A DNA stretch of 64,000 nucleotides from an uncultured virus (IMG/VR IMGVR_UViG_3300011813_000035) (Duplodnaviria > Heunggongvirae > Uroviricota > Caudoviricetes). This document shows, piece after piece, positions 590 to 62,878 of the stretch. The stretch spans positions 62,001 through 126,000 of the IMG/VR virus record IMGVR_UViG_3300011813_000035, one strand, 5' to 3'. Under the pieces are notes generated by a model, which saw nothing but the letters and a program-made list of their open reading frames with translations, was not told where the DNA came from and ran no database searches. Position numbers and translations under genes: made by a program. How positions within the stretch are numbered: position 1 is the first letter of the stretch; the number at the start of each line of letters is the position of its first letter.

Positions 590-1480
590 ATGATGAAAGA
601 AACTGATTTGCTAGAAAACAAAGAGTTTAGAAAGAAATTAGTTGTTAAAGTGGAAGTGCTAGAAAAGGTCAAGGAGTTGCTTCTTATTCCTGGCACAGAA
701 TTAGCAACAGCCAGACAAGTAGCTGATTATTATGAGGTTGAGGAGGATACAGTTAAAAAATTGATATTCCGAAACCTTGATGAACTAGAAGAGGACGGGC
801 TTAAATCTTACACTGGAAAGGAAACGAGGGATTTTTTTGATAGAGACAATATGTCCCTTTCAAACTTACGGGGAGGTTTTGAAGTAAATGGTATACGGTT
901 TAGTAATAGGGGGAACAAAGTTATCCCTCGTCGCGCAATTCTCCGCATTGGAATGTTGCTTAGAGATTCTGAGATAGCAAAGGAGATTAGGACTCAACTT
1001 CTTAATATAGAAGAAAAGGCAATTCCTAAAACTAAGATGGCCGACATTACAGAAGAACAAACCCTTGCTTTATCGGTTGGAATGGCATATGCAAGCGGTG
1101 ACCCTACGGCGATTATGTTAGCAACTACAAAAATGATGGACTATAAAAATCGTCATATTTCTAAACTGGAAGAATCTAAAAAAGCGCTTGCAAACGGTAT
1201 TCTTGAATGGGAAGATAGGAGCCGTATTAATTTTGCAGTCCGAAAGATGGCTGCTTTTGCAAATATTCCAGTTGGTCAGGCATGGAATGAACTTTACAAG
1301 CAACTAAAAAACGGCTTCCATATTGATTTACCAAGTAGAGGTAAAAAACCATGGGTGCAACACGTAAGTGAAAGCGAATGGCAATGCGTTGTCAAAACAT
1401 TTTCAGCACTATGCGAATATTACGAGTTGGAACCTAGTAATATGTTTCACGACTTAAAAATTGAAGAAGCAGAAGTTTAA
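590..1480 (+). CDS. Phage antirepressor-like DNA-binding protein
   Basis: Strong AGGAGG RBS. Motifs 'QVADYYEV' and 'RRAILRIGMLLRDSEIAKEIRTQLL' are recalled from SPbeta-type antirepressor N-terminal domains. Confidence 0.7.
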   Translation: MMKETDLLENKEFRKKLVVKVEVLEKVKELLLIPGTELATARQVADYYEVEEDTVKKLIFRNLDELEEDGLKSYTGKETRDFFDRDNMSLSNLRGGFEVNGIRFSNRGNKVIPRRAILRIGMLLRDSEIAKEIRTQLLNIEEKAIPKTKMADITEEQTLALSVGMAYASGDPTAIMLATTKMMDYKNRHISKLEESKKALANGILEWEDRSRINFAVRKMAAFANIPVGQAWNELYKQLKNGFHIDLPSRGKKPWVQHVSESEWQCVVKTFSALCEYYELEPSNMFHDLKIEEAEV

Positions 1481-1547
1481 AATAAGGATTTGTAACGGTC
1501 AAATGTTGCAGATCCATTTTTGATTAAAAGCATAGGGGCATGACAAT

Positions 1548-1796
1548 ATGAAAGTAAACGTATATACGATAGGGAAAAAGCGGTTAATCGGCACATATGA
1601 CGCAAGAAACGCCTATGATTCAAGTTTTTACTTTCGGAATATGCCTACATTGTCAGCGAAGAAATGCAGAGAAATACTTGATACGGTTTCACCAAACTAT
1701 AAAATCAATTCTCAAACTTTGGTTTTTGAGAACATAGAGACGGGATACACGGGAGTACAGGAGGTTCACAGAGGCGGTACTATTCTTAACTTTTAA
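1548..1796 (+). CDS. Hypothetical protein
   Basis: ORF with AGGGG RBS in a co-directional array. Confidence 0.6.
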   Translation: MKVNVYTIGKKRLIGTYDARNAYDSSFYFRNMPTLSAKKCREILDTVSPNYKINSQTLVFENIETGYTGVQEVHRGGTILNF

Positions 1797-1988
1797 ATGG
1801 AGGATATGGAAATGAAGAAAATCAAATATGTAATTATCGTAACCGCACTTACTATGAGTGCTTTTTTATTTGGCAGATTCGGCAACAGAGACATTATTGA
1901 CATGAATCAGGTGGCAGATATCCAGGCAGATACAGACGGCGCACAGATTACACTTCTGGACGGTAACGGCTACTATTGGGAAAGGTAA
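1797..1988 (+). CDS. Small membrane-anchored hypothetical protein (start probably ~1812)
   Basis: GGAGG RBS, N-terminal hydrophobic helix. Confidence 0.6.
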   Translation: MEDMEMKKIKYVIIVTALTMSAFLFGRFGNRDIIDMNQVADIQADTDGAQITLLDGNGYYWER

Positions 1989-2020
1989 CAAGGAAATATC
2001 CATTTTAAAGGAGAAAAAAT

Positions 2021-2221
2021 ATGGAAAGCAAAACATTAAATAGTTTTAAGGGTTTTTCAATTGAAAAAAGCTATGACTTAGACACGAACGAAAGAATAGA
2101 CAAAGAAACAGTTGTATATTCTGCTTATGATAAAGAAGGTGATTTGTTTGATAGCAATACAGATTTAGACATATTAAAAAGACTAATTACAAGTTATATA
2201 TTAGATAAAAGATTACATTGA
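2021..2221 (+). CDS. Hypothetical protein
   Basis: AAGGAG RBS directly after a boundary palindrome. Confidence 0.6.
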   Translation: MESKTLNSFKGFSIEKSYDLDTNERIDKETVVYSAYDKEGDLFDSNTDLDILKRLITSYILDKRLH

Positions 2222-2298
2222 TTATTTGAATGGAAAATGTATTAGAGATGGATGGACTAAAAGTAAATAAAACCGAATTTTATAGGGAGGACTTAACC

Positions 2299-2478
2299 AT
2301 GAAAAAATATTTAGTATCATTTATGAAAAAAGGAGAACTTTTTGAAGTAGTAAAAAATGCTTATGATTCCTACGAAGCAAGAAAAATTGTGTCAATTGAA
2401 AACAATATACCAATGAATTTTGAAATTGGTAAATGTGAGGACGAAGATAATCACGTAGGTGCGGTAATAGAGTTATAG
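2299..2478 (+). CDS. Hypothetical protein (start moved to ATG 2299)
   Basis: GGGAGG RBS before 2299. Confidence 0.6.
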   Translation: MKKYLVSFMKKGELFEVVKNAYDSYEARKIVSIENNIPMNFEIGKCEDEDNHVGAVIEL

Positions 2479-2485
2479 AAGTATT

Positions 2486-2555
2486 AGCAGAGTGGAGCGG
2501 CTGACACATAGCCGTTTTAATGCACCTGATATAAGTCAGGCGGTCACAAGTCCGC
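2486..2555 (+). ncRNA. Twister self-cleaving ribozyme, permuted (P5-type) form, copy 1
   Basis: GCAGAGUG - P1 hairpin - UAA UGC AC - P3 hairpin - CGGUCACAAGUCCG. P2 is GCA/UGC; the pseudoknots are GUG/CAC and AC/GU. Predicted cut U2518/A2519. Confidence 0.85.
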
Positions 2556-2576
2556 AAAGTGTAGAATGGAGGGAGA

Positions 2577-3383: not shown

Positions 3384-3414
3384 TAAAAACCGAATTTTAA
3401 GGGAGGAAAACCGA

Positions 3415-5576: not shown

Positions 5577-5689
5577 AGGAGGCTACATAATGCCAGAAAT
5601 TAAATTAGATCTTGATTGGGAAGTCATAGTGAAATGTAACGATTAAAAGCATATGAAAAGTATGTTTTATGGTTAGATTGGAGGAATAA

Positions 5690-6022: not shown

Positions 6023-6639
6023 ACAATAGAATGTAATTTTCAACGGTTAATATAGAAAGGAAGGTTGTTACAGCATGGATAAAATGCTTGTAGATATGAA
6101 TAAAAAAGAATTATGTGAAATTTTAATTCAATATGATAAAAAAAGAACGATCAAGCAATTAATGAGATTATCAAAAAACATTATGGTAGGTCAAATAAAC
6201 AGTTATAGAGAATATAATTTTCATGTAGAGAATGGAGGTATTTAACAATGATAGGAGATAGAACAGCAAAGTTAGAAAAGTTCTTTAAGGTAAGTAAGCC
6301 AAAAGATCTAAATGAGATAGAATGGCTTGAAAAATTATATGAAAAGGAGCAGGAATGGGAAGAGGATCACCAAAAAGCATTCCCAATATAAAAGATAATA
6401 GAATTGTAATTTTAAGGAGGAAATTAAAATGAAATTATTTTGGAAAAGATTTATAGAATCAGATAATGGTCAATGTTTGCAATTTATATGTTTTTTATTT
6501 TTTCTTCCAGTACTTATAATAGTCGGATTAATAACTAGACAAATAAAGTTAAAAGACTTGTTGTAAATGTTTTAGCATTTTTTTTTTAAGATGAAAGACA
6601 GGATTCACGTCTCATTGAAGCGGAAAGAGAGGGATTGGA

Positions 6640-6828: not shown

Positions 6829-7046
6829 GCACACATGAAAAGCACATTTCATGAATGAAATACTATTGTAATGCAAAAATTGGAACTCAACATGTACAAA
6901 ACTGGCACTTGGGTTGAGCTGATCTAAGATATATGTTATAAGAGAGTATACTAAATTATTAGTCACTATTATATAAAGAAAGGGGTGATATCTTAAAGAT
7001 TAGATAAGTAACTGTAGGCGTATAATAAAACATTAGGAGGGTATTT

Positions 7047-11990: not shown

Positions 11991-12592
11991 ATGGCTTGAA
12001 AAATTATTTATAAGATGATTAACAAAAAACCAACTATCAATATTCGGTAGTTGGTTTTATTTTACCATAAGACAAATGAATTAGATTGATAAAAGAACTA
12101 TTTTAAGGAGAATAATATTATGGGATTTTTAACAAATTTATTGATATCGACAGGATTCACTACAGGGGTTTTAGAACCATCAAGTAAACCAAAGGATTTA
12201 GATGCTCTGACAAGAGATAACTTGAGCGGGGAATACACAAAGGCAGAGATGAGAAGAAGATTAAATATGGGTTATTATGATAAAAAAGACTAATTGTAAC
12301 TATGTGAGCCACTGGATGATAAAAATCTGGTGGCTTTTGTATTATCCAAATAGTATAATGGAGGAAGATAAAAATGAATGGCTTAGATGGATATAAGATG
12401 GTTGGAACATTTGTTTGTGGTGATATATTAATGGTAATTATCGAAGCAATACACGGGACTCATGTAATGACGTCTGATGAATGGGAGAAAAAGCTTAGAA
12501 TGGGAACAGACTCCTACAGGAGTGCAGTACTTTCGAAAAGAGAATAATGTAGCGTAGAGTTGAAAGGATTGTTTTATTGATGGGGGGTAAAT

Positions 12593-12859
12593 ATGGGAGA
12601 TATAAGAGAAGACGGAGAATTGTTAAAACTAGTTCACAATGAAAAGGTGAAGAAGACACCAGACAGGATCGAATATGCTATTAAACAGTTTGAAGAAAAT
12701 GGCATTGAGTACCGGTTGCTTAATGAGTCAACAGGACACTTTCATTGTTGGGGGAAGCGTGATAGAAGTCTGTATCAGTTTTGGGCTGGAACTGGAAAAA
12801 TAATGGGTCATGATAATATCAGAGGTATTAGCTCAATTATCGAAGAACTGTTGAAATGA
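12593..12859 (+). CDS. Conserved phage hypothetical protein
   Basis: Bounded by palindromes at 12561 and 12852. Confidence 0.65.
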   Translation: MGDIREDGELLKLVHNEKVKKTPDRIEYAIKQFEENGIEYRLLNESTGHFHCWGKRDRSLYQFWAGTGKIMGHDNIRGISSIIEELLK

Positions 12860-12878
12860 TTATTTTAAGTGGGGGATT

Positions 12879-14875: not shown

Positions 14876-15124
14876 ATGGAGATTACAAGCATAATGCCTG
14901 CAATTAAGGTAACCAAAGAAAATAATATGATGGGTAGCGAAGAGTATTTTTCTTTGGGGAGTCGAATTAAAGTCACAGACTTGGAGGGTGAGGAATTTAT
15001 AGGAGTTCTTATATGTATGGATTTAGCAGAGGGTGAAGAAGACGATATTCTTTTATTAGATGTGGCTGGTGAAAATGTTGAGATACAATGCGTTAATATA
15101 AAAAATATAGAGTATAGCAGATAA
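14876..15124 (+). CDS. Acidic hypothetical protein (Sm-like/beta-rich)
   Basis: AAGGAGG RBS; bounded by palindromes at 14847 and 15122. Confidence 0.6.
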   Translation: MEITSIMPAIKVTKENNMMGSEEYFSLGSRIKVTDLEGEEFIGVLICMDLAEGEEDDILLLDVAGENVEIQCVNIKNIEYSR

Positions 15125-15159
15125 AATCATCGTTTTATTACATAAGAAAGGAAGATATA

Positions 15160-15549: not shown

Positions 15550-16335
15550 ATGCAAGCACAAACAATTGAAAATTATCAAGATAATATAGTTCAATTAGAG
15601 GTAGTAAAAAAGTTAAAACAGAATCCTAAATTAAAAACTGACGGCATGGAAAAACAGACTCCTAATAATAATTCGGTTAATCGTTGGGTACATCCAATAA
15701 GAGAATTATCGGATGTGAAAAAGTGTATTGAATACCTACATGATAAAGCATTATCGTCAAAAAGATTAGATACACAAAGAGCTGCATATCGTGATTGGTT
15801 TTTATTCGTGGTTGGAATTAACGTAGGATTGCGTGTATCTGATTTAACTCATCTCAGATGGGATAATGTTTTTGAATCGGACATGAAAACGTTTGTCGAT
15901 GGAAGAAATAAGGAAGAACAGAAAACTGGTAAACTGAAATTGATCTGCCCAAATGAATATATAAAAAAAGTTGTAAAGGAGTACCTATATTTTTCAGATA
16001 CAAATCCGAAAGCCGGTGAACATGTATTTTTAAAAGGACGAAAGAACAAGGATAACACATATTCTCCTATCTCAGATGCAACAGTAGAGAAAATGATTAA
16101 GGAAGTGACAAAGGCTTATGGTATAAAAGGTAACTATAACACACATAGCTTACGAAAAACATACGCCTATCATAAATACATGATGTACGTGAAGAATGGA
16201 GATCCACTTGCCCTGGTTAAAGTTCAGAAGGATTTGAATCATCGGAATAGCAGTGATACGGCTAGGTATCTTGGAATTACGAGAGATGAGCAGATTAAAA
16301 GCAGTATGGAACTTGGAGAATATTGGGATTTATGA
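15550..16335 (+). CDS. Tyrosine recombinase (catalytic-domain-sized)
   Basis: Full catalytic set: R (GLRVSD), K (EQKTG), HxxR (HSLRK), H (LNH), Y (ARYL). Confidence 0.9.
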   Translation: MQAQTIENYQDNIVQLEVVKKLKQNPKLKTDGMEKQTPNNNSVNRWVHPIRELSDVKKCIEYLHDKALSSKRLDTQRAAYRDWFLFVVGINVGLRVSDLTHLRWDNVFESDMKTFVDGRNKEEQKTGKLKLICPNEYIKKVVKEYLYFSDTNPKAGEHVFLKGRKNKDNTYSPISDATVEKMIKEVTKAYGIKGNYNTHSLRKTYAYHKYMMYVKNGDPLALVKVQKDLNHRNSSDTARYLGITRDEQIKSSMELGEYWDL

Positions 16336-17540: not shown

Positions 17541-17579
17541 AATCGATTAAAGAACTGTTTCAATAGAAAAGACGATAGG

Positions 17580-17864: not shown

Positions 17865-17890
17865 GTTATCAACTCCATTCTTTTATATTC

Positions 17891-17981: not shown

Positions 17982-18032
17982 GTGGAATATAGAGGAAAAC
18001 GGTGGTTAAAAGAAAGGAGAATGCGTAATATT

Positions 18033-23274: not shown

Positions 23275-25347
23275 ATGAAGGAGAATAAGATTATGGAATT
23301 TATTAAATTCAAGGAAGAATTACAAAAGAGGTTTGCAGAAATAAGCAAGGATTCAACACATTTATTTGAGGTAAACGTGGATAAAGATGAATTATGGAAC
23401 AGGTATCTTGATAGTTTCCCGGTTGGAACAAACAAAATTTTCAGAGAAAGAAGAGAACATGATTGCAGTTGCTGCCGTCAGTTTATCAAGAATATTGGTA
23501 ATGCAGTCGTCATTAAAGACAATGAGGTACATACGATTTGGGAATTAAATCTCGGAGACAAAACATATCAGCCAGTATGTGATGCTTTATCAAACTTTGT
23601 TAAATCGCATATGGTAAATGACGTCTATGTAAGCAAATTCAAAAAGATTGGTACTGACTTCAACTATGAAGATATGAATGGTAAGATGCATAAATGGGAT
23701 CACTTCTTCTTGGAACTCCCAGAAAAGTTTTATGACGGAAGTTTACGGTCTGAAGGTGATATTAAAGGCGGACTTAGAGATACCAGAAACGTTTTTAAAC
23801 GTTCATTAGATGAAATCTCTATGGATTCTCTTGATGTAGTTATAGAACTTATTGACTCCAATACGCTTTATAAAGGGGAAGAATGGAAAACTGCTCTAGG
23901 TGAATTCCGGAAATATAAAAAGGAATATGACAATCTGCAAGCAGAAACAGAGAAAGAGTTATTTGCATGGGAGAAGTCGGTAAAAGCAGGTGTGGCCATA
24001 GGAAGAATTCGTAACCATAGTATTGGTACGCTTCTTATGAATGTTAGTGAAGGAATGAATTTAGATCTGGCGGTTAAGAAATATGAGCAGATTGTAGCAC
24101 CATCGAACTATAAGAGACCAAAGGCAATTTTTACAAAGAAAATGCTTGAGGATGCACAGAGAACTATTACAGAGCTTGGATATATGGAGTCTTTGCAGAG
24201 AAGATTTGCAAACCTAGATGATATTACAGTAAATAACATTCTGTTTTCTAATAAAGATTCTGCAAAACGAATCGGCGGAGTTGATGATATTTTTGGAGAT
24301 ATGGCAAAAGATGTAGCCGTAAGTCCGAAGCGATTCTCGAAGGTTGAAGAAATTTCCGTGAAAGAATTTATTGAAAGAGTTCTCCCAACCGCGAAAGAGG
24401 TTGAAACTTTTGTAGAAAATAAACATGATAAAAACTTTGTGTCTTTAATCGCCCCAATCAACCCTGAAGCTAAGACAATGTTTAAATGGAATAACGGAAC
24501 GAGCTGGGCATATACAGGCAATATCACAGATAGCGATATGAAACAGAACGTGAAAGCGGCTGGAGGTAATGTAGATGGGGTTCTTAGATTTTCTATTCAA
24601 TGGAATGAAGATGGAAAGGATAATTGTGATTTAGATGCTCACTGTTACGAACCTAGTGGTAATGAAATCTACTTTAGTAATTGTAGAAAACCTGACATTT
24701 CAAGAGCTAGTGGTCAGTTAGATGTAGATATAGTAAATCCAAATGGAAGAATTGCTGTTGAGAATATTACTTGGACTGACAAGAGTAAAATGCAGCTAGG
24801 TGCATATAGATTTTTCGTACATCAATTTTCTGGAAGTGTAAGAAAGGGATTTCGGGCAGAAATAGAATTTAACGGAGAGATTTATACATTTGACTATAAG
24901 AAATCATTGAGAAGTGGAGAGCATGTGCAGATCGCAGAGGTCGTACTGAGTTCAGATGGAGAATTTACTATTAAAGAAAAAGTATCTGGAAGTTCAACAA
25001 TTTCAAGTAAAGAAATTTGGGGAGTTAGCACAAATCAGTTTGTTCCTGTATCGGTTATCTGTTATAGTCCTAATTATTTTGACGAGCAGGACGGTATTGG
25101 TCATAGACATTTATTCTTTATGCTGAAAGATTGTAAAAATGGTGAAGAACCAAATGGATATTACAATGAGTTCTTAAAAAATGAACTTGTTGAACACAAA
25201 AGGGTCTTTGAAGCACTGGGAGCAAAATGCCATGTTGAAGATACGGATGACCAGCTTTCAGGAATTGGGTTCAGCATGACAAAACGTGCGGATTTAGTAG
25301 TAAAAATAAAAGGCGCAACCGAGAGAATCATGAAAATTAAATTTTAA
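23275..25347 (+). CDS. Large conserved phage protein with a YfaP/TerD-like beta-domain (start probably 23293)
   Basis: 690 aa; 'W...DLDAH...LDVD...ENI' motifs; N-terminal H.CSCC. Confidence 0.7.
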   Translation: MKENKIMEFIKFKEELQKRFAEISKDSTHLFEVNVDKDELWNRYLDSFPVGTNKIFRERREHDCSCCRQFIKNIGNAVVIKDNEVHTIWELNLGDKTYQPVCDALSNFVKSHMVNDVYVSKFKKIGTDFNYEDMNGKMHKWDHFFLELPEKFYDGSLRSEGDIKGGLRDTRNVFKRSLDEISMDSLDVVIELIDSNTLYKGEEWKTALGEFRKYKKEYDNLQAETEKELFAWEKSVKAGVAIGRIRNHSIGTLLMNVSEGMNLDLAVKKYEQIVAPSNYKRPKAIFTKKMLEDAQRTITELGYMESLQRRFANLDDITVNNILFSNKDSAKRIGGVDDIFGDMAKDVAVSPKRFSKVEEISVKEFIERVLPTAKEVETFVENKHDKNFVSLIAPINPEAKTMFKWNNGTSWAYTGNITDSDMKQNVKAAGGNVDGVLRFSIQWNEDGKDNCDLDAHCYEPSGNEIYFSNCRKPDISRASGQLDVDIVNPNGRIAVENITWTDKSKMQLGAYRFFVHQFSGSVRKGFRAEIEFNGEIYTFDYKKSLRSGEHVQIAEVVLSSDGEFTIKEKVSGSSTISSKEIWGVSTNQFVPVSVICYSPNYFDEQDGIGHRHLFFMLKDCKNGEEPNGYYNEFLKNELVEHKRVFEALGAKCHVEDTDDQLSGIGFSMTKRADLVVKIKGATERIMKIKF

Positions 25348-25754: not shown

Positions 25755-26040
25755 TAATATTTGGGGAGGTTGTACTCCCCATTTATTATTTTTAGACATG
25801 AAAGAGGGATTTCATGTAAATTAGAATTTGTAGGAGGCGATAATTATGTGTGTAAGTGAATTGCTAGAATATTTGCAGAAGATGCTTATGGATGAACGAA
25901 TAGAAAATGATAGCGAGGTATCTGTATATAACACGGAACAAGAAGTATATCAGTCCCCTATCTTAAGGGTAAATGAGTACAAGGAACTGGAAATATTTGT
26001 TGAATAAGTTGGGATTTTCAGCAGAAAGAGGGTATATATC

Positions 26041-28481: not shown

Positions 28482-28549
28482 AATATAGCAAATAAAAACA
28501 GTTAAAACTTCGATTTCAACGGAGAACTAAAAGTGGAGGTGAGGGAAAA

Positions 28550-30661: not shown

Positions 30662-30971
30662 TTTCACATTAAAATTCCTGTTTCATCAGGAAAATCAACA
30701 CCCATCAAATTGGTTTGGCGGCTAATGAGATGGTCAACACAAGTATATAAATTCAATCAAAAATTTCCCTATATAAATTATAACTGAATAGAGAATATCT
30801 GTACGGGTGCTGAAATAGCTCACCCTTGGGGGAGTTCGCCCATAAATAGCTGTTTTTACATAGATTTTCATATAGAGTGAGTTTCTATGTTCCGTCCGGG
30901 AGGGCGTTCACATATATCAATTTACATTGGTAACATTTAATAATTTTATTACATAAAGGAGATTTAAAAAC

Positions 30972-42200: not shown

Positions 42201-43338
42201 TGAAGATATTGTGAGAGCAATTATTAAGAATCAACCATACGAAAGCTTGGATGACTTTTTGAAAAAGATGAATGCATACAAAAACGAGGATAAGGATAAT
42301 AAGTTCGGTGATAAGGCAGTAATTACTCTGATTAAAGCTGGCTGCTTCGACAGATTAGAGAAGAAAGATAGAGTGGAGATAATGAAAGGTTATATCAAAA
42401 AGATTTCCAATCCACTTTCAAATCTACAGATGGATAGCATTCAGACATTACATGATATTGGAATGCTCACAGAAAAACAAGAGAAGTATGAATATAGACT
42501 CTACAAATTCAGAAAGTATATCTTCTTAAATCGATTTCTCGCTGAAAAAAGAGGTAAATCACCTAATACATATTTTTATAGACTGGATAGACAGTTTTCA
42601 GAACCATTTTTCTTTGAGCATTTTGAAACAAATATGCAGGAAAACAAGGATTACGAGTATGATGAGGAGGGTTTCATATTAGTAAAACGTGGAAGTATAG
42701 ACAGAGAATACGATAAATTGATGGCAGATTTCAAATCAAAGGTACTTAGCAACAAAGAGTTCCTAGAAGTTGTGAATAAGAATCGATTTGAAAGTACATG
42801 GACTGATAAGGCAGAAGGAACGATTTCTAAATGGGAGATGGACTCGTTAAGTTTCTATTACCATGAACACGAATTAGCACACGTAAATAAGCAAGAATAT
42901 ATGATTTCAGATTTTGATTCACTTCCAGAAGTGCCAAAAGTGTCTGAATATTATGTTTGGAGAGGAAAAGAACGTCCTCGGTTTATACTTACAAGAATCT
43001 GTGGAACCGTTCTCGATAAAGATAAAAACAAACATAGCATTACGTTATTAACTCCTAATGGTGTTGTTACAGTAAAATTCTATAAAGGTCAGTTTGGATT
43101 TTATGATAAACAGATTTCGGAAATGGATGAAGAAAGTAATAAAAAGATAGTTTTAGAAAAGTCTTGGTTTGGAAGAGGGAATAAGTTATTAGTGACAGGA
43201 TACAGACGTAATGACCAATTTGTTCCCAAGAAATATATGGACTCCGCTTACAGGCACACGTTGCAGCTTATTACGGAGATAGATGAACAAGGCAATTTAA
43301 AATTGCAGTCGGAAAGGATTGGTGTAGAAGACGAATAA
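39265..43338 (+). CDS. dnaE: DNA polymerase III alpha subunit
   Basis: PHP domain (HNHSE, DSHY), ARGS, PDIDVD, KFDCL, YSFSQNH. Confidence 0.95.
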   Translation: MNTIYDFMSNHNHSEDSNFRLKDCIIRAEDIVNRAVELGHKGVSITEHESVSSHIRIMQRFQELKRLQIKYKEMKDQNDEKAISEDKDIQKNLKYLEVMDCDFKLGLGNEIYLINDMADVKENYESGITKFWHFILIAKNAKGYEQIKKISSESAWKNWYRQGKMERVPTVKSELEEIIGDEKGNIIATTACLGGELPNYVLSFFRDGNFTAKRKIHEFITWGINVFGKENFFLELQPTLEMPKESLRETHPQIIVNQKLIMLSKAYGIDYSFATDSHYLKKEHRPVHEAYLKADEDNVSNRELGDFYATTYMMDVQELHDLLSSHLTEEEIATGFANTMKMHHMIETYDLSHSVIVPSDKTIPDVELKHAFKEFYPKYKYIKKFAESGDKQEKYLMYMIEQSIVTRKLQYREAVVARLDVELGEVWNISEKIGMRLATYYVLVQRIINEIMWKVSYVGVARGSVTGFLIAYAIGITQMNPMKYGLPHWRHLSAERPELPDIDVDSESAKRQEIFSLMKQYFGIDNVLNTLTLRTEGTKSCTLTACKGWGLDNDTAQAIADMIPFERGSNWTLKDCFEGNIEKNRPPVTEFKNAVEKYEGLKEVMLMIEGLVCGRSIHASAVYIFDNGYLEHNSKMKAPNGTDITAYNMHDSDLCGALKFDCLTILGLDKEHKAVDLLIEKGVLEDQGSIKATYDKYIHPDVLDYDTTEMWDMVGNNEIMDAFQFDTPMGSQAAKKVKPHTLPELATANSLMRLMPEQGEESPIDTYIKYKADINLWYREMRDYGLTEEEIKTLEPHLLLVYGVAETQEVVMKLSMDENIANFTVAEANMIRKSIAKKKADVLEKARLLFFKKGEEIGTSKKMLEYVWYVQFKKSFGYSFSQNHTFPYSAICLQEMNLAYHYNKIFWNTACLTINAGADENNENNKSTNYGKIAKAISEIQNRGQKIELPNINKAKFGFEPDVEEDEIVFGLMGICGVGEDIVRAIIKNQPYESLDDFLKKMNAYKNEDKDNKFGDKAVITLIKAGCFDRLEKKDRVEIMKGYIKKISNPLSNLQMDSIQTLHDIGMLTEKQEKYEYRLYKFRKYIFLNRFLAEKRGKSPNTYFYRLDRQFSEPFFFEHFETNMQENKDYEYDEEGFILVKRGSIDREYDKLMADFKSKVLSNKEFLEVVNKNRFESTWTDKAEGTISKWEMDSLSFYYHEHELAHVNKQEYMISDFDSLPEVPKVSEYYVWRGKERPRFILTRICGTVLDKDKNKHSITLLTPNGVVTVKFYKGQFGFYDKQISEMDEESNKKIVLEKSWFGRGNKLLVTGYRRNDQFVPKKYMDSAYRHTLQLITEIDEQGNLKLQSERIGVEDE

Positions 43339-45667: not shown

Positions 45668-45728
45668 AAGACAGATAGAACAGTGGTTTCATAGAAAAAA
45701 CCTATGAGATAGTCATAGAGTTTAATAA

Positions 45729-52378: not shown

Positions 52379-52672
52379 ATTCTGTGTTTCAAAGAACAGT
52401 ACTCCCAGAATAGTAATTTGGCGATTGTTATTCTGGTCAACACAAGCACATAAATTCAGTCAATAAATTCATTGAAAACCTCAGAAATAGTTACTTTATA
52501 AGAGAATATACAGCTATACAACGGTTGAATATCATTATGTTTTACCGTTAAAACTCCGCTTTCATCTGGTGGTCGCGAACACTGGGTTTAAGCGCAACAA
52601 TAAAAAATAAGAAAGGTAAAACAGTAAATTCTAGGATAAAGAGAATGCGCATTCCCTGTATATAGGGAAAAT

Positions 52673-54483: not shown

Positions 54484-55068
54484 GTGAAAAGTAGTATAAA
54501 TTATAGCAATTATATTGGAAGATATTTCAAGCAAAACAAAGACATCAACCACCTTGTGTTTAAAATACTTGGCTATGATGGTAGATACTTTAGAGCAGAG
54601 CAGTATTATTTAGCATTGGGCTATAGCGTAAGACAAGAAAATTGTGGCTATCAAGTCTCTTTTTTAGATGCAGATAATTTTGAGGAAATAACAGAGAAAG
54701 AATTTATGGGTATAGTTAGCTTATGTGATCGTCCATATATAGTCAAATATGACGAAAATGATAAACCTACCTTTTATAATGTAGATGGTAAACCTATTTT
54801 TAAACATATGAAAAAGGAGGATTTTAAAGTGACAAAAAAGTATATGCTTGGTGTTTCTAAAAACGGAATTAGCAGTTTTATATACGAAAAGGGTAGTGAG
54901 TATCTAAAGACATTCGAAAATTATAATCAAGCTTTAGAGGAAAAGAAAAAATTAGGTGACTATGATGATGTGTTTATATACTGTACAAAAATCTATATGC
55001 CCAAAAGACTTATTCAAATTTTGTTTAGTATTTTATGCAATCTTAAAAGATTGAATTTGAAAGAATGA
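54484..55068 (+). CDS. Hypothetical protein
   Basis: AGGAG RBS; bounded by palindromes at 54442 and 55058. Confidence 0.6.
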   Translation: MKSSINYSNYIGRYFKQNKDINHLVFKILGYDGRYFRAEQYYLALGYSVRQENCGYQVSFLDADNFEEITEKEFMGIVSLCDRPYIVKYDENDKPTFYNVDGKPIFKHMKKEDFKVTKKYMLGVSKNGISSFIYEKGSEYLKTFENYNQALEEKKKLGDYDDVFIYCTKIYMPKRLIQILFSILCNLKRLNLKE

Positions 55069-55133
55069 TTTCTTTGGTATCTTCAATACATAAAAATAAT
55101 TACACCTATATAATGGTGTAATTATAATCATGA

Positions 55134-56799: not shown

Positions 56800-57135
56800 A
56801 TGAAAACATATATTGATAATAACGTAAAAATTAATGGAAATGATTTCACTGACTACGACAGAGCTATTGAATACATAGGTAAAATAATGAAAAGAAATAA
56901 AAGTTATATATATCAATGTGATTACTGTGGCAAAAATTGTAAACATACTCCGGAGTTCATCCTTCCAGTCATTAAGTCAATTGAAACCTGTGCATATGGA
57001 GGACATAGAGGAGCTAAGTTGGCAACTGCTGTAGGAAGTATAATGGATAATGAACAGAGAGATATTTGTCCTAGTTGTCAAAAGAAACTTGCAAGGTTGG
57101 CGAGTTTGATACCTAATGTCATTCTTACGGAATGA
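56800..57135 (+). CDS. Zinc-finger hypothetical protein
   Basis: CDYC...CPSC. Confidence 0.65.
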   Translation: MKTYIDNNVKINGNDFTDYDRAIEYIGKIMKRNKSYIYQCDYCGKNCKHTPEFILPVIKSIETCAYGGHRGAKLATAVGSIMDNEQRDICPSCQKKLARLASLIPNVILTE

Positions 57136-57167
57136 AAGAGAGGTTTCATGACGGAAGGAGGGTATAC

Positions 57168-57449: not shown

Positions 57450-57491
57450 TTAACAGATAAAAGCGATGTTTCATGACAGAAAGGAGTTTTA

Positions 57492-57960: not shown

Positions 57961-58209
57961 ATGTTAAATATTTTTAAAAAAGGTCATGAAACGCTTACAT
58001 CTGATATTGATACATGGGTAGTTAGATGGAATAGGAGATATGGAGATTTTAGTGGAAGTTATGAGAAAACAGCACAATTTTTTACAGATAAAAGTGAAGC
58101 TCTTAGATTTCAAGAAGAATTAAAACGTGCCATTAAATTGTTAGGACATACCGCGTCTCACTTAACAGATGTACGGTGTGAAAGAGTTAAGAAAAACAGT
58201 TGTGAATAA
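57961..58209 (+). CDS. Hypothetical protein
   Basis: GGGAG RBS; bounded by palindromes. Confidence 0.65.
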   Translation: MLNIFKKGHETLTSDIDTWVVRWNRRYGDFSGSYEKTAQFFTDKSEALRFQEELKRAIKLLGHTASHLTDVRCERVKKNSCE

Positions 58210-58244
58210 AACAAACCTTTCAAATAGAATGGAGGTGATTTTAA

Positions 58245-58576
58245 ATAGAAGGAGCGTGTAGTAACCAAGTTGTAAAATGCATTATTTATACTAATGATTT
58301 AGAACTGGGAAGAAGTAAACTGAAAGAAATTGAAAAAGATAAAGGGTCACAGGAATTTATATCATTAAGAAGATCAGATCCCAGTATAACAACGAGACAA
58401 TATTCGATGACGGAGAAGAATGGATCACAGTAAAGCCTAACAATGGAGCAAGGGGATATAGGTGGAGAAAAGCATGGATAGATGTCAAGACCCCTTATGA
58501 ACAGCTTACAACATGTGTGCTACCATATGGAGATTGGTATAGGTGGGAAGATCCAAAGTATTTTAATTGGGATTGA
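58245..58576 (+). pseudogene. Frameshifted hypothetical gene (or sequencing error)
   Basis: GGAGGTGA RBS plus ATA. Two overlapping frames (58245-58433 and 58343-58576) fill one palindrome-bounded unit. Confidence 0.45.
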
Positions 58577-58757
58577 AATCAACATTTGAAAGGAGAAAAT
58601 TACGTGAGCAAAGTTAGGTTGGCTGGTATGAGAGTAGGAACTACCGGAATCCTGGGTGCTGTTTTGAATATGTGTAACAAAGGAAAGAGTGTCTCTGACA
58701 TTAAAACGTTCTGTGAAACATCATTAAATTTAGACGGTATGAAGGAGGATAAATAAT

Positions 58758-59378: not shown

Positions 59379-59424
59379 TAACGTTAAAACGGAAGTTTTA
59401 TAGCTCAACAGGTGACAAGGTAAA

Positions 59425-59449: not shown

Positions 59450-60400
59450 TTATTTTTCTTTAGAAAACTTATATAAATTCTGATATTGACCAGGATTGAC
59501 TTGACGAATGGCAGTTAGTAATCCTTGAAGACGCTTCTTAGATTTTTCTGGATTTAATTTTAGCTCAGTTAATTCATGTATTACCTTAAGGCGCATTGAG
59601 TTTCGAGGTATGGGATTTCCATTCCTGTCAAGAACAACTCCAGTAATAAGTTTTGGATAATTCTTGGTATACGTTTTAACTTTTGACTTGGAAATCATAT
59701 AATGATATTTTGTTACTATTTTATTAACCATAGTTTTAAATCGATAATTAATTTTATTAGCACAAGAAAATGTTACATCGTCGGCATATATTGTCATAAC
59801 TATATTATTTTTAGAAGATAGATTATATAATTCATCAAACATTGGTCTATTTACTAAGTATGATAAAATTGGGCTGGCTGGAGAACCCGTTGCTAAATGG
59901 TTTGAATTTTTTAATTTCTTTTGCATATAAAAACTTTCAACTTTATCAACATTTTTTAAGGGACACAAAGTTAAATCAACTGTTGTTAAGTTGGTAAGAA
60001 TATTTGCAATATCAGGGGAGGTTTTGAGTTCATTAATAAAAAATAAATAGACATATTCTCGAGGTATACATGGGAAGAAAGCTGTTAAATCAATTTTATA
60101 TACATACTTATTCCCTTTATGGATTAATGCGTTATCATAATATGATTTACCTTTAACACCTGAAAAAACATAGTTTGGAACTTTTATTTGACTTAATTGA
60201 GATTTGAGCGATCTTTGAATTTGTTTGACACTGTAAGATGGCGCTTCAACCAATCTTGGTTTAGCTTTCGTATCAATGTAGATATTGTATTCCATTGCAA
60301 TATCTTTTTGATTAAAACTATTCTTATTTGTAATCTTTAATAAGTACCTTAAAGATTTTTTTGACTTTAAGTTATATATTTTACAGTTTGTATAATTCAT
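59450..60400 (-). CDS. Retron-type reverse transcriptase
   Basis: D...FF, TGSP.SP, YADD; retron region X NAxxH (NALIH) and region Y VTG-like (ITG); 316 aa, no maturase or endonuclease domain. Confidence 0.9.
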   Translation of the reverse strand: MNYTNCKIYNLKSKKSLRYLLKITNKNSFNQKDIAMEYNIYIDTKAKPRLVEAPSYSVKQIQRSLKSQLSQIKVPNYVFSGVKGKSYYDNALIHKGNKYVYKIDLTAFFPCIPREYVYLFFINELKTSPDIANILTNLTTVDLTLCPLKNVDKVESFYMQKKLKNSNHLATGSPASPILSYLVNRPMFDELYNLSSKNNIVMTIYADDVTFSCANKINYRFKTMVNKIVTKYHYMISKSKVKTYTKNYPKLITGVVLDRNGNPIPRNSMRLKVIHELTELKLNPEKSKKRLQGLLTAIRQVNPGQYQNLYKFSKEK

Positions 60401-60430
60401 ACAAACACTCCTTGCTTTTTAGTGCTAGTA

Positions 60431-60655
60431 TCAATCCTTAACAATCTCATATAATAACTGGATGAAACGAGATAGGGTTTTAGGATCAACGTGTGGTGCA
60501 ATCAGTGATACGATAAGTAAAGCAACAATGAAGAGTAGTAGTGCTACTATTAACTGACCCAAATTAATATTGTAATTATTATTAATGGTACAATTGGTCA
60601 AGTTGGTCTGATTGTTGCTAAAAATTTGTGGATTTTTATCATCCGGTTTTTTCAT
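60431..60655 (-). CDS. 74-aa membrane protein; candidate retron effector/toxin
   Basis: AAGGAGGTGA RBS, Asn-rich N-terminus, ~20-aa TM helix, amphipathic tail. Confidence 0.75.
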   Translation of the reverse strand: MKKPDDKNPQIFSNNQTNLTNCTINNNYNINLGQLIVALLLFIVALLIVSLIAPHVDPKTLSRFIQLLYEIVKD

Positions 60656-60659
60656 AATT

Positions 60660-61004
60660 CACCTCCTTGTTATTATTGGCTCCATATGGAGTCTCCCAAT
60701 CCATTAATAACAAAGAGATACATAACCTTGCATCACTATACTAGCACAAAACTTACTCCCTATTTTTTTCTATAGGAGATTAAAATTTCAAAACCAACCG
60801 ATTACCTTTTCATTGATGACATAGTCCTACGAACAAACACTTCGCACCGCACCTTTTCCGATACCCGGGGGAGGTACAATCATCTCGTCTCCACTATTGT
60901 CGTCGAAAGGGATTGGGGTTTTAAAAATACTCAGAAGGCTCTGAGTAGCATTCATGTTGGTAGCATGAACCATATTGGGAGAAATCTGGTTATTATTCAC
61001 TGAC
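60660..61004 (-). ncRNA. Retron msr-msd-like ncRNA
   Basis: 9-bp inverted repeat 60974-60982/60692-60700, two short 5' hairpins (60950-60970, 60928-60947), long stem 60790-60825/60893-60922. Confidence 0.7.
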
Positions 61005-61010
61005 ATGGGC

Positions 61011-61039
61011 ATTATATCATATTTTGGAAAAAACATCAA
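61011..61039 (-). promoter_or_regulatory. Sigma-A promoter of the retron cassette
   Basis: TTGATG-N17-TATAAT with extended -10 TG. Confidence 0.8.
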
Positions 61040-61066
61040 TTAAAATTGGGATTTTAAAGGAGGGTT

Positions 61067-61600
61067 ATGACAGATAAAGAAAGAATATTAATGACAATAA
61101 TTACTAGAATAATTCCAGGCTTGATGTATTGTGGTAATTCATATGAAAAGAGAGAAGAATATGTTAAATCATATATGCTTGATACGGCTGGACTCGAAAG
61201 TGGAGATCTAGTATTTGCGAATACATCAATCTATCCGAATGATTTTATAGTAGGGTTTATTCACGAAATTAAGCCTGATTGTATCGTCATAAGAGAAATC
61301 GGGAGCGATAGATTGTGTAATTACTATAATGAAATGTTTACAAAAATCAACAAAGACAAACTTGGATATGAGATATTGGAAGGAGTTCAATATAAAACAT
61401 ATCATAAGGTATTAAAAGCTTTTAGCGATTATGCAAGTTATGCAACAAAGTTTAAATATATTTCATTTGACGAAAACACGTGCACTGTCCAGTCAAGAAT
61501 AATGTTTTCAGATGAAATCAAGTATGAAATAAAATTTAAATATGATAGTAAAACCACTATTAAGAGTATTGGAAAACTAATTAAAGAAAAGGAGGTTTAA
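61067..61600 (+). CDS. Hypothetical protein
   Basis: AAGGAGG RBS after the palindrome at 61041. Confidence 0.7.
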   Translation: MTDKERILMTIITRIIPGLMYCGNSYEKREEYVKSYMLDTAGLESGDLVFANTSIYPNDFIVGFIHEIKPDCIVIREIGSDRLCNYYNEMFTKINKDKLGYEILEGVQYKTYHKVLKAFSDYASYATKFKYISFDENTCTVQSRIMFSDEIKYEIKFKYDSKTTIKSIGKLIKEKEV

Positions 61601-62227
61601 ATGGGGTATAAGGATATTTTGGGCAGAGAACTCCACGACGGAGATATTTGTGTCGGAAAAGGAACGGGTAGAGATGTATGTGGAATGGACGTTGGTATAT
61701 GGTCTGGCAAATCTATTGCATTTAAGGGCGGAAATAAACGTTCAATGGGAGATGTATTTCTTGTAGTAAATCCAACAGAAGAAGAACTGACAATTAAAAG
61801 TGATATTGAAAAATCTTTAATTGAAAGCGAGAACAAAAGACTAGAAAGAGATTCTGTAAAAACAATACCACTAAGTAAACTTGAAGTTGGTGGAATATAT
61901 GAATGTAACAATAATTACTTGTACCTGTATTTAGGAAAACGCAAAGTCACATTTAAAAATCTACAGTATAAAAATTCTGATCCTAAAGTTCAGGAGGGAC
62001 ATTGCTTTGTTTTTGCTTGCGGATCTGATGACGAAAAAATAAAGAAAGATATCGTTGAAATTGGAACGTATCATGGAAATCATAGAATAGAAGTATTGAA
62101 GGGAAATAAGAAACTCACAAAACTAATTCGCAAGATTGATTTAGAGTTCCCCATGGTTAATGAGGTGCATAGCGAAGGATACCTCAGATATAGTCCAAAT
62201 TATCATTATGAATTAACAGTAGAATAG
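61601..62227 (+). CDS. Hypothetical protein
   Basis: AAGGAGGT RBS. Confidence 0.7.
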   Translation: MGYKDILGRELHDGDICVGKGTGRDVCGMDVGIWSGKSIAFKGGNKRSMGDVFLVVNPTEEELTIKSDIEKSLIESENKRLERDSVKTIPLSKLEVGGIYECNNNYLYLYLGKRKVTFKNLQYKNSDPKVQEGHCFVFACGSDDEKIKKDIVEIGTYHGNHRIEVLKGNKKLTKLIRKIDLEFPMVNEVHSEGYLRYSPNYHYELTVE

Positions 62228-62261
62228 CTTTAAAATTTAACATTCATTCGCGAAGTGGGAG

Positions 62262-62522
62262 GTGACTGTTATTAATTATGAATTATATAGAAGACTAATT
62301 ATGATTGCAATAGACGGGGAAAGGTATGAAATATATCTTTATTGTAACAAATCGGACTTTCATCTGTTTGATGAGATGTTACAGAATTGTAAGTTCTTGT
62401 ATGTAAGGGATTTTGAAATACACTACAAAGATCCAAATTATGTTTATAAAATAAATAACACTTCGGGTGTCGTGCAAATAAATATGAATTGCATAAGAGA
62501 ATATTATTATGAACTGATTTAA
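62262..62522 (+). CDS. Hypothetical protein (start uncertain)
   Basis: Bounded by palindromes at 62231 and 62520. Confidence 0.55.
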   Translation: MTVINYELYRRLIMIAIDGERYEIYLYCNKSDFHLFDEMLQNCKFLYVRDFEIHYKDPNYVYKINNTSGVVQINMNCIREYYYELI

Positions 62523-62552
62523 AAGTGTAGATTCATATGGAAAGGAGTAGCC

Positions 62553-62780
62553 GTGGTAATTGGAAAAATTGTAAATAAGCAGACTAATCAAGATGTATGT
62601 CAGAATTACTTAAATAAAGAATTAAGAGATTTTGAAGCAAATATTGGAGAAGATTTAAAAATCATCTACACAAATGGGTCATTCTTTACTCACGAAAAGG
62701 TGTTAGAGTGTGACCAAGATGATTATGGATTTTGGATTGAGACTACTAATAAATTATGGAGAATTGATAACCATACATAA
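62553..62780 (+). CDS. Hypothetical protein
   Basis: AAGGAG RBS; bounded by palindromes at 62520 and 62778. Confidence 0.6.
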   Translation: MVIGKIVNKQTNQDVCQNYLNKELRDFEANIGEDLKIIYTNGSFFTHEKVLECDQDDYGFWIETTNKLWRIDNHT

Positions 62781-62878
62781 ATGCATTGTTTCATAAATCT
62801 AAGATAAGCATTAATGGCTTGTCGTCTAACAAACAACAATCCCAACAATTTTACAATTAAATATAGGAGGCAAAGAAC

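Follow-up and report, generated by a model that had tools for sequence, protein, structure and literature searches.

In integrons, small promoterless genes stand in arrays delimited by attC recombination sites, which are 57-141 bp long, travel with the cassette and act as folded single strands. For Xer, Cre, Flp and lambda Int, an identical 6-8-bp overlap in the two partners is the established rule. The dif site has a 28-bp layout of inverted arms around a 6-bp centre, pdif modules alternate in XerC/XerD order, and the engineered heterospecific lox/FRT cassette exchange by Cre or Flp uses 13-bp arms and 8-bp spacers, the arms being the same and the centres different, and only like sites recombine. 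On Acinetobacter plasmids, many copies of pdif "dif modules" are described as flanking adaptive genes (Mindlin et al. 2019, PMC6449649). For the promoter-early stem-loops (PeSLs) of T4-type phages, modular shuffling has been proposed, and these promoter-plus-terminator cassettes are described as recombining by mutual homology and yielding mini-circles (Arbiol et al. 2010, PMC2839356). SPbeta contains a dispersed intergenic repeat, SPBRE, which serves as the operator of MrpR (YopR); this protein adopts the fold of a tyrosine recombinase (Kohm et al. 2023, PMC10516654).

The window analysed here, a stretch of 64,000 nucleotides, is part of an SPbeta-like prophage, of the large Bacillus type, and carries a dyad that recalls each of these systems in part. 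The motif, TRAAA-N6-TTTYA, is 16 bp long, with inverted 5-bp A/T arms around an asymmetric 6-bp centre. Like attC, the dyads delimit small promoterless genes in arrays; unlike attC, the site stays while the genes change, and its arms do not covary. They share with dif and pdif the inverted arms around a 6-bp centre and the many copies in accessory regions, and a weak 11-6-11 outline in SPbeta matches the dif layout, but good conservation is limited to 5-6 bp of each arm. Unlike pdif modules, the dyads all have one orientation, each has its own conserved centre tied to map position, and the carrier is a phage rather than a plasmid. As in lox/FRT exchange, content between two different sites would be exchanged with order undisturbed, although the dyads would form a naturally occurring set, about 30-45 in number, with a candidate enzyme only. 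PeSLs are likewise short repeats between small non-essential genes in plastic regions, whereas the dyads hold no promoter or stable stem and differ within a genome while being conserved by position between genomes. SPBRE, also repeated, dispersed and intergenic, was excluded as the identity of the motif; its sequence differs, and its copies are far fewer than the dyads of SPbeta.

The motif in the window is real. There are 18 exact matches against 2.53 +/- 1.63 expected from 100 dinucleotide shuffles (largest value 7), and spacings N0-N5 and N7-N14 give only 0-5 each. When one mismatch is allowed, 91 matches are found, compared with 49.9 +/- 6.4 in shuffles and 48-62 at N3-N5 and N7-N9, an excess over background of about 35 copies. 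The host contigs listed (C2-C12, of 44) hold 0.95-3.3 motifs per 64 kb. All five copies quoted in the sequence-only reading (3384, 6836, 25799, 57133 and 59385) were recovered, and its claims of a fixed spacing and of a spacer that differs from copy to copy hold, all 18 exact copies having different spacers; its starting copy at 1478 resembles the motif only in a two-mismatch form.

Based on our own heuristic gene calls, 16 of the 18 exact copies lie at gene junctions, as do 30 of the 73 one-mismatch copies, against 10.0/73 expected from a junction space of 13.6% of positions. The claim of more than 40 punctuated boundaries can thus be sustained with one-mismatch forms included (46 junction copies), but only 16 of these are exact and some degenerate copies are chance. 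Sites stand between one gene's stop codon and the next gene's ribosome-binding site, 10-22 nt ahead of many starts, and punctuate arrays of one to three small genes, mostly in one orientation. The upstream stop codon falls inside the site in 4 of 18 exact copies, and a fifth site (25331) straddles the stop with its final two bases. Sites in the early region of SPbeta often begin with the stop codon (9/22, by our own comparison). None of the eight internal junctions of the SSB-to-RecD2 operon holds a copy, as had been claimed; one exact copy lies within the polymerase gene and a one-mismatch copy closes the operon. The parallel claim that the 15.4-21.2 kb block has none does not fully hold, since it contains the one-mismatch copy at 17547, whose spacer also occurs in two relatives. 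Copies also stand between convergent (59385) and divergent (61041) genes, and in SPbeta they also occur downstream of a terminator yet upstream of a promoter, and adjoin minus-strand late genes in the same form.

The motif is widespread in the family. SPbeta has 34 TAAAA-N6-TTTTA sites versus 0-3 at other spacings from N2 to N11, and five related prophages have 22, 19, 5, 13 and 19 motifs at N6 versus 0-7 at other spacings, with N6 enrichment in four of the five. In an unbiased scan of a Staphylococcus SPbeta-like phage, the motif (7 at N6 versus 0-3) ranks first among dyads. In SPbeta the site extends to a weak 28-bp palindrome whose outer 6 bp are weakly conserved; in the window's group the conserved arms measure only 5-6 bp, and half-sites are 11 bp apart, centre to centre. 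Arms of this length are short for a tyrosine recombinase and count against a recombinase reading. Self-cleaving twister ribozymes, separate from the motif, also lie between genes of the phage.

Comparison with related genomes points to the six-base centre as an "address" that related phages keep at the same relative position. The window shares seven spacers with G011, six with G025, three each with G015 and G007 and one with G016, all collinear and none reverse-complemented, against about 0.08 expected per genome pair by our own arithmetic, the genomes compared being kin rather than independent. With one-mismatch arms, 11 further window copies have spacers found in relatives, and with up to two arm mismatches 30 copies share spacers versus a mean of 8.2 (maximum 19) for letter-shuffled spacers. 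Among 50 same-spacer pairs, flank homology is present on both sides in 3, on the left only in 13, on the right only in 11 and on neither side in 23. Where the immediate flanks are unrelated (35 pairs), identity reaches 1.0 solely within the site; the R/Y arm positions have 0.63 and 0.57, and values beyond the site range from 0.23 to 0.57. For homologous genes with a same-side site in both genomes (an unbiased set), 8 of 10 have identical spacers, one differs by a single base and another by three bases; there are 60 cases of a homologous gene with an adjacent exact site in one genome only. The order CAAACC, TCAACA, CGGAAG, TTGGGA, GCATTG is kept in the window, G011 and G015, and the contents of the intervening slots are unrelated. 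For example, one slot holds a retron reverse transcriptase in the window (PADLOC RT_VI, E 2.6e-69), whereas in G011 it is occupied by a 56-aa gene and in G015 by two unrelated genes. For the address GGATTG, a control pattern gave one match across the genus (Table 1), and flank homology in 28 pairs of loci is found on the left in 5, on the right in 1 and on both sides in none. These comparisons support in part the view that the sites mark borders of exchangeable gene slots, with centres kept by position.

Table 1. Dyad sites and associated genes in the window (spacers are the six-base centres; G numbers denote related genomes)
Position	Strand	Feature	Observation
1992..2007		one-mismatch site, TATCCA	spacer also in G025; 65-kb run X1 contig match stops at 1988
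3384..3399		exact site, TAAAA-ACCGAA-TTTTA	spacer also in G025, G016, G007
5654..5669		exact site, AGTATG	collinear with AGTAAG (one spacer mismatch) of G025, G015, G007
6399..6414		one-mismatch site, TTGTAA	same spacer in G011, collinear
6836..6851		exact site, AGCACA	spacer also in G025, G011; both flanks unrelated
12090..12105		exact site, GAACTA	BLAST block with G025 begins at 12089
12561..12576		exact site, GGATTG	address in 7/49 genus genomes; flanks differ
12852..12867		exact site, TGATTA	upstream stop in spacer; run X1 contig block ends at 12864
15122..15137		exact site, TCATCG	TAA is upstream stop; run X4 contig block starts at 15124
15550..16335	+	261-aa Xer-like tyrosine recombinase, candidate enzyme	Pfam Phage_integrase, E 2.7e-15
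17547..17562		one-mismatch site, GAACTG, in regulatory block	spacer also in G025, G015
25331..25346		exact site, ATTAAA	straddles end of gene 23293-25347
25799..25814		exact site, GAGGGA	spacer also in G011; both flanks unrelated
28503..28518		exact site, CTTCGA	shared with G025 beside 68%-identical upstream gene
30670..30685		exact site, TTCCTG	11 nt before left edge of replication module
33101..34120	+	Sak4/YorG-like AAA_24 annealing protein	Pfam AAA_24, E 3.9e-33
43140..43155		exact match inside DNA polymerase III alpha gene	spacer in no relative; probably chance
45676..45691		one-mismatch site, TAGAA-CAGTGG-TTTCA, closing RecD2 operon	spacer also in G025, G015, G011
52549..52564		exact site, CTCCGC	spacer also in G025, G007, G011
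55058..55073		one-mismatch site, GAATGA	same spacer in G011, collinear
57133..57148		exact site, GAGAGG	TGA is upstream stop; spacer also in G015
57458..57473		exact site, GCGATG	motif match
58207..58222		exact site, CAAACC	first of five collinear addresses
58574..58589		one-mismatch site, TCAACA	spacer also in G015
59385..59400		exact site, CGGAAG	left border of retron slot
59450..60655	-	contents of slot: type VI retron reverse transcriptase and 74-aa gene	reverse transcriptase at 59450-60400
61041..61056		exact site, TTGGGA	right border of retron slot
62778..62793		one-mismatch site, GCATTG	exact in G015, one-mismatch in G011
6592, 9908, 52376, 55617		further supported one-mismatch copies	spacer sharing with relatives

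Mosaic breakpoints at the motif are enriched in one comparison and not significantly so in another. Between SPbeta and phi3T, one-sided homology is found at 15 of 36 site junctions versus 16 of 130 site-less junctions (odds ratio 5.1, p 2e-4); roughly half of the junctions with one-sided homology lack a site. A block of 99.96% identity ends within the right arm of a site, by our own count only about 10 of the 34 gap edges have a site 14 nt away or closer, and the breakpoints scatter from 8 nt outside a site to inside it. SPbeta also has an extra unit of one site plus two genes. At one difference, the left arm is joined to a different centre (TTGAAG versus AGACTG), which is therefore not the product of a strict same-centre rule. 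In the clade of the window, the ends of BLAST blocks show no significantly greater closeness to exact sites than random gene junctions do (20 of 217, or 9.2%, within 20 bp; null mean 6.9%, maximum 12.9%); the replication block that the window and G025 have in common at 95.6% identity stops 1 nt past the site that closes the RecD2 operon. Gene adjacency is conserved at 4 of 94 site junctions versus 225 of 999 others, a loss that fades among small genes (2/30 versus 32/306, p 0.75). Laboratory phi3Ts-SPbeta hybrids have crossovers within long homologous blocks, with 15 of 16 junctions placed in homology by their authors (bioRxiv 10.1101/2020.05.06.055103).

Could stop codons, A/T-rich linkers and ribosome-binding sites have produced the motif by composition alone? 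TAA or TGA followed by A-rich sequence is common after genes, and chance alone should give about 50 matches with one mismatch, but enrichment at N6 only and spacers shared across genomes refute this explanation, to which we give practically no credence; the low density in host contigs argues against it as well. The motif might instead act in RNA, as a small hairpin or a processing or translation signal between cistrons of long early transcripts, as its distance from many starts and the coincidence of its first bases with stop codons would suggest. However, the arms combine freely: the A/T, G/C, G/T and A/C combinations number 6, 3, 4 and 5 in the 18 window copies and 30, 26, 15 and 25 in 96 sites, and flank complementarity within a site is no better than between sites. 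Because the arms do not covary, the motif is not a hairpin, and the RNA-processing alternative raised earlier is disfavoured. A 5-bp A-U stem would also be marginal, copies between convergent or divergent genes, between a terminator and a promoter, or beside minus-strand late genes fit a transcript signal poorly, the conserved centres are left unexplained, and the phage has its twister ribozymes besides; an RNA role is thus improbable.

A true integron-like system, in which an integrase takes up and releases cassettes, each with its own site, at a platform, would account for the punctuated arrays, the tyrosine recombinase encoded nearby and the extra two-gene unit of SPbeta. But the site is tied to neither neighbouring gene, and the 50 same-spacer pairs show no single travelling neighbour; addresses hold position while contents change, the retron cassette lies on the opposite strand, sites of 16-18 bp with short, non-covarying arms are unlike folded attC, and no attI/Pc-type platform was seen. 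The system is not an integron, and the integron-like label of the sequence-only reading, a very improbable one, does not stand, although its idea of gene shuffling is supported in part, insofar as the sites border exchangeable slots. Its dispersed repressor or nucleoid-protein alternative is a live rival: the dyad could be the docking site of a paired phage regulator or architectural protein, with swapping by ordinary or short-homology recombination, in which an annealing protein such as the Sak4/YorG-like one would use the conserved 16-28 bp as the sole shared sequence. A dimer reading two halves would suit the 11-bp distance between half-sites, the independently varying arms and the weak 28-bp palindrome, the AAA_24/Sak4-like gene of the window is matched by SPbeta YorG (tblastn, E 3e-34), and the hybrids formed in homology, the spread of breakpoints around sites and the many mosaic edges that have none are as ordinary recombination would leave them. 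Against this, a reader of the arms alone gives no reason for identical centres (8/10 in the unbiased set, and the 50 pairs), the R/Y arm positions drift while the centres stay, and a single mismatch among 16 bp should be only a small hindrance to short-homology recombination. We consider this explanation possible but rather unlikely.

The reading we prefer, with a probability of about 0.5, is that the dyads are double-stranded DNA sites marking fixed slot borders and serving as position-specific recombination joints, possibly through a phage tyrosine recombinase. The inverted arms and asymmetric 6-bp centre match the geometry of a tyrosine-recombinase core site, as had been proposed; the activity, the crossover inside the site, the need for centre identity and the acting protein are inferred. 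The most economical enzyme would be a phage tyrosine recombinase that binds the two arms jointly, as a pair, and requires the same centre in each partner. Tyrosine recombinases are encoded in each of the window, G007, G011, G015 and G025: a small one within the early regulatory block, a YomM-like protein in the late region, and a further one of 405-464 aa, read as the putative integrase, whose gene lies elsewhere within the fetched region or next to it. The 261-aa Xer-like protein of the window, which has positional counterparts in these four relatives, aligns to the XerC-like chain 4a8e with identical R, K, HxxR, H and Y positions, and from such homology it may be regarded as a candidate enzyme for the sites. 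When two related genomes meet in one cell, a crossover would occur within a same-address site, and the stretch between two addresses would be swapped as a block, with gene order and genome size preserved.

Inverted TRAAA and TTTYA arms around a six-base centre (TRAAA-N6-TTTYA) occur 18 times in the window, compared with 2.53 +/- 1.63 times in shuffled sequences (largest count, 7), and the five copies quoted in an earlier, sequence-only reading were all found. Only one spacing is involved: N6 gave 18 copies, whereas any other spacing from 0 to 14 gave 0 to 5. The other spacings serve as the null requested in that reading, since N5 and N7 are equally subject to the effects of stop codons, ribosome-binding sites, and A/T content; against it, N6 alone is enriched. 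Allowing one mismatch raises the count to 91, compared with 49.9 +/- 6.4 in shuffles and 48 to 62 at other spacings, and host contigs C2 to C12 (of 44) carry 0.95 to 3.3 copies per 64 kb. The dyad is 16 bp long, has A/T arms, and lies 10 to 22 nt ahead of start codons. By our own heuristic gene calls, 16 of the 18 exact copies and 30 of the 73 one-mismatch copies (10.0 expected) sit at gene junctions. Copy density differs between junction classes: a copy is present at 44 of 83 junctions in the accessory regions but at 2 of 19 in the regulatory block and SSB-to-RecD2 operon (p = 7e-4), or at 16/83 and 0/19 when only exact copies are counted (p = 0.04). The sequence-only reading had seen none at regulatory-block or operon junctions, which holds for exact copies and fails for the two degenerate ones.

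The dyad recurs across the phage family. SPbeta contains 34 copies of TAAAA-N6-TTTTA, compared with 0 to 3 at N2 to N11, and weak outer positions extend its dyad to a 28-bp palindrome. Copies at N6 number 22, 19, 5, 13, and 19 in five related prophages from one genus with the window, those of genomes G007, G011, G015, G016, and G025 (listed by handle, not in the order of the counts), and in a Staphylococcus SPbeta-like phage N6 (7 copies, against 0 to 3) is the top dyad of an unbiased scan. The SPBc2 record of SPbeta, in the version consulted, has no annotated feature for the dyad, a literature search of sources other than the 1999 SPbeta genome paper returned no description of it, and neither did a term search of one review (PMC8270828).

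A hairpin or other RNA reading was dropped, as the arms do not covary. Arm positions 2 and 15 are independent, with A/T, G/C, G/T, and A/C combinations numbering 6, 3, 4, and 5 in the window and 30, 26, 15, and 25 among 96 sites in six genomes. Pairing between flanks is 2.53/6 within a site versus 2.69/6 between sites in SPbeta, and 2.11/6 versus 1.65/6 in the window. Site 59385 lies between convergent genes, site 61041 lies between divergent genes, and one SPbeta copy is downstream of a terminator and upstream of the yorE promoter. Together, the independent arms and these placements point to double-stranded DNA as what is recognized, with half-sites spaced 11 bp from each other. All 62 distinct spacers are nonpalindromic.

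The centres behave as addresses conserved between genomes. The window has 7 spacers in common with G011, 6 with G025, 3 with G015, 3 with G007, and 1 with G016, where we calculate a chance expectation of about 0.08 per genome pair. Their order is kept throughout, none is inverted, and orientation is the same across all six genomes; 11 more window copies with one-mismatch arms also have spacers in common with relatives. The only spacer found by eye in both SPbeta (34 spacers) and the window clade is GAGGGA, which is consistent with chance. The genes beside a conserved spacer are usually not conserved with it: among 50 same-spacer pairs in the six genomes, protein-level homology covers the left flank only in 13, the right only in 11, neither in 23, and both in 3. 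Where the immediate flanks are unrelated (35 pairs), full identity is confined to the site itself; the degenerate arm positions score 0.63 and 0.57, and positions outside the site score 0.23 to 0.57. Since these pairs had been found through their spacers, we also started from pairs of homologous genes that each have a site on the same side, a set picked independently of spacers, and the spacer was identical in 8 of 10. Another 60 homologous-gene cases have an exact site in one genome only.

The genes between two addresses, here called a slot, differ between relatives. For example, the addresses CAAACC, TCAACA, CGGAAG, TTGGGA, and GCATTG follow one another in the window, G011, and G015 with unrelated contents. 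Between CGGAAG and TTGGGA, the window has a type VI retron encoded on the opposite strand, whereas the slot is occupied by one 56-aa gene in G011 and by a pair of unrelated genes in G015. The window retron consists of the reverse transcriptase followed by a 74-aa gene in one slot with a dyad on either side, and some 380 bp lying upstream, in the same orientation, could accommodate its noncoding RNA. Of 49 genomes in the genus, 7 carry the GGATTG address (control pattern, 1 match); across 28 locus pairs, flank homology was on the left in 5, on the right in 1, and on both sides in none. Two SPbeta-like prophages of G007 carry GGATTG with different flanks (C1:1261843, locus L158, and C2:3306068, locus L159), and this pair offers a naturally occurring setting in which to study exchange among prophages of one host. 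A scan of viral contigs for GGATTG was set aside because its matches, at least 114, were mostly due to chance, with at least four dyads at 3 of the 80 loci examined.

Several homology breakpoints coincide with sites. The 95.6% block matching G025 (33107-45692) stops one base past site 45676-45691, and G015 and G011, which agree at about 97% as far as one site, are unrelated past it. In SPbeta versus phi3T, homology is one-sided at 15 of 36 site junctions compared with 16 of 130 other junctions, and among the cases listed, nine block ends lie in a site or no more than 13 nt from one; about half of the one-sided junctions have no site. Within the window clade, block ends were no closer to exact sites than random junctions were (9.2% versus 6.9%; null maximum, 12.9%). 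Gene adjacency is kept at 4 of 94 site junctions versus 225 of 999 others, an effect that disappears when the comparison is limited to small genes. Block ends in contigs from four sequencing runs, each containing at most 0.16 of the sampled words and compared as contigs only, match eight site edges. Three laboratory hybrids (Hyb1 to Hyb3) have junction intervals of 1.4 to 4.9 kb, and 5 of their 6 distinct interval edges are about 8 bp or less from a site; as the intervals fall within long homologous blocks, these hybrids are uninformative on site-specific crossing-over. Counting against exchange at the sites are the block-end result in the window clade, the small-gene comparison, the one-sided junctions that lack a site, one SPbeta/phi3T junction that has a left arm next to a different centre, and the crossing-over of the hybrids in long homology. 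For phi3Ts-SPbeta hybrids, a preprint reports a single nonhomologous junction "following yosA" (bioRxiv 10.1101/2020.05.06.055103).

Candidate enzymes are encoded nearby. The window's small Xer-like protein, aligned to the XerC-like chain 4a8e, is identical at all R, K, HxxR, H, and Y positions, and it has no useful sequence similarity to YopP, YopR, or YomM of SPbeta. A small tyrosine recombinase is encoded within the early regulatory block of the window, G007, G011, G015, and G025, and the window's prophage and the same four relatives each have one YomM-like recombinase in the late region. Some of these small or YomM-like recombinases may act on the dyads. Tyrosine recombinases require the overlap to match between partners. 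Under this rule, distinct centres inside one genome would prevent self-deletion, and same-centre sites of two related phages or prophages in one cell would recombine, swapping the DNA between addresses. Alternatively, the dyad could be a protein docking site that is passively used by short-homology recombination through a Sak4-like protein, which would account for the scatter of breakpoints but not for the conserved centres. Centres that stay identical despite arm drift and replaced flanks are hard to reconcile with a protein reading only the arms, and if the sites dock a regulator only, those private centres remain to be explained; the overlap-identity rule predicts them. We tentatively suggest, at a probability of roughly three in ten, that about 30 to 45 natural heterospecific sites with common arms and private centres serve a dedicated YopP-, YomM-, or Xer-like tyrosine recombinase that swaps slots.

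The sequence-only reading had called the dyads integron-like. That comparison fails because site and neighbouring gene do not travel together: an integron cassette moves with its own attC, whereas the dyad stays while genes change, as seen in the 50 pairs (both flanks homologous in only 3) and in the five addresses kept in order. Furthermore, attC folds in single-stranded form from a long, imperfect inverted repeat, whereas the conserved unit of the dyad is 16 to 18 bp with no excess of complementarity within the site. Integrons also have an integrase gene next to attI and a cassette promoter heading the array; in the window, the recombinase gene at 15550-16332 has dyads to its left and right over 60 kb. 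In Xer/dif, lox, and FRT sites, an asymmetric overlap of 6 to 8 bp separates two inverted binding arms, and the dyad shares this core geometry, namely, inverted arms specific to N6, no palindromic spacer, and orthologous copies that are never inverted. Tyrosine recombinases bind arms of about 11 to 13 bp and cleave at the overlap edges; the putative sites here have 5 to 6 conserved bp per arm in the window clade and 11 weakly conserved bp in SPbeta. The cognate enzyme is a candidate only, known from catalytic positions and counterparts in the four relatives examined, and centres are kept between genomes (8/10), yet at one SPbeta/phi3T junction the left arm is joined with a different centre. 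PeSLs of T4-type phages have a strong early promoter and a terminator stem-loop per element, whereas the dyad has no stable stem, and promoters in window positions 1 to 20 kb were no commoner than in shuffles. In pdif modules, XerC/XerD sites are oppositely oriented, whereas dyad addresses all have the same orientation in the six genomes. Identity with SPBRE, the operator to which the MrpR repressor binds (PMC10516654; PMC4191935), was rejected: the yorE, yorM, yorZ, and yosX promoters share a AAAAAATATGTATAT-like element, unlike the dyad, within TAGACA...TATAAT promoters. By analogy, in its working the system would most resemble exchange between heterospecific lox or FRT sites, or Xer/pdif modules (PMC6449649), and may play the role proposed for PeSLs (PMC2839356). 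The dyad shows the defining features of neither comparison group, nor those of integrons.

The window (G000:C1:179386-243385) lies within a low-G+C stretch of its contig, at about 110 to 250 kb (32 to 35%, versus about 40% for the host). Pfam matches include a DnaB-like helicase, a RecJ-like exonuclease, a 1,357-aa DNA polymerase III alpha, RecD2, an NAD-dependent ligase, a C5 methylase, and an AAA_24 protein. The polymerase shares 45% identity with the YorL proteins of SPbeta, phi3T, and related phages, and SPbeta-type phages match at the protein level only; megablast against the phage collection gave zero DNA-level matches. On this basis, the window represents the half of a distant SPbeta-like prophage that carries its early and accessory genes.

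Features of the window and its prophage, with run-contig ends
Feature	Position	Strand	Evidence or remark
Run-contig ends agreeing with sites	1988, 6839, 6860, 12110, 12563, 12864, 12877, 15124
Run-contig ends away from sites	4506, 5105, 5576, 8271, 8369
Twister ribozymes, type P5	2486-2555, 3612-3681	+	Rfam RF02684, 49.9 and 50.9 bits (gathering score, 37.6)
DUF4238 gene	12879-13751		Pfam; in slot
Xer-like tyrosine recombinase, 261 aa	15550-16332		Sites on both sides, 60-kb range
Xre-type HTH gene	17580-17864	-	Divergent
Tandem 46-nt repeats, two	17884-17991		Each with near-consensus TTGACA...TATAAT promoter
tRNA-Gln	19024-19096
Sigma-70 region 2 (residues 36-82) plus GmrSD_N/NsnA-like nuclease domain, 682 aa	19168-21216	+
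70-nt repeat, two copies	30698-30767, 52401-52470		71% alike; adjoin dyads 30670 and 52549
DUF4062 gene	45729-46706	-	Pfam; in slot
Type VI retron	59450-61040	-	Reverse transcriptase versus PADLOC RT_VI, E = 2.6e-69
YomM-like tyrosine recombinase and HU-like (YonN-like) gene	G000:C1:165076-166550		Outside window; side by side in late region of same prophage

Other features of the region are also of interest. The two twister ribozymes are 91% alike and sit in intergenic gaps of small early genes, and similar stretches are present in G025, G015, and G016; self-cleaving RNAs placed in this way between cistrons may serve to process the early transcript. The 46-nt repeats, flanked by the Xre-type gene and small plus-strand genes, are likely a lysis-lysogeny switch. 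The first 70-nt repeat opens the replication operon and is 80 to 99% conserved in G025, G015, and G011; the repeat is possibly an early promoter/operator, this clade's counterpart of SPBRE. The sigma-70/nuclease protein is an odd fusion with the tRNA gene just upstream, and the DUF4062 gene follows directly past the site closing the RecD2 operon, on the opposite strand. Host-wide short matches at 10861-10940, 12021-12066, and 15455-15527 fold as terminator-like hairpins and are unrelated to the dyad.

SPbeta is a model temperate phage, and whether the sites are exchange joints can be tested directly with existing SPbeta and phi3T strains. If they are, they would explain mechanistically why the accessory and defence genes of these 130-kb phages are so extremely mosaic, and would provide a possible role for the phages' unexplained extra tyrosine recombinases and a ready-made set of orthogonal sites for Bacillus genome engineering. 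Were a dedicated recombinase at work, the phages would possess built-in cassette exchange in which position is kept, corresponding to the "linker" postulated by the modular theory of phage evolution and explaining how defence genes such as the window retron are dealt among relatives.
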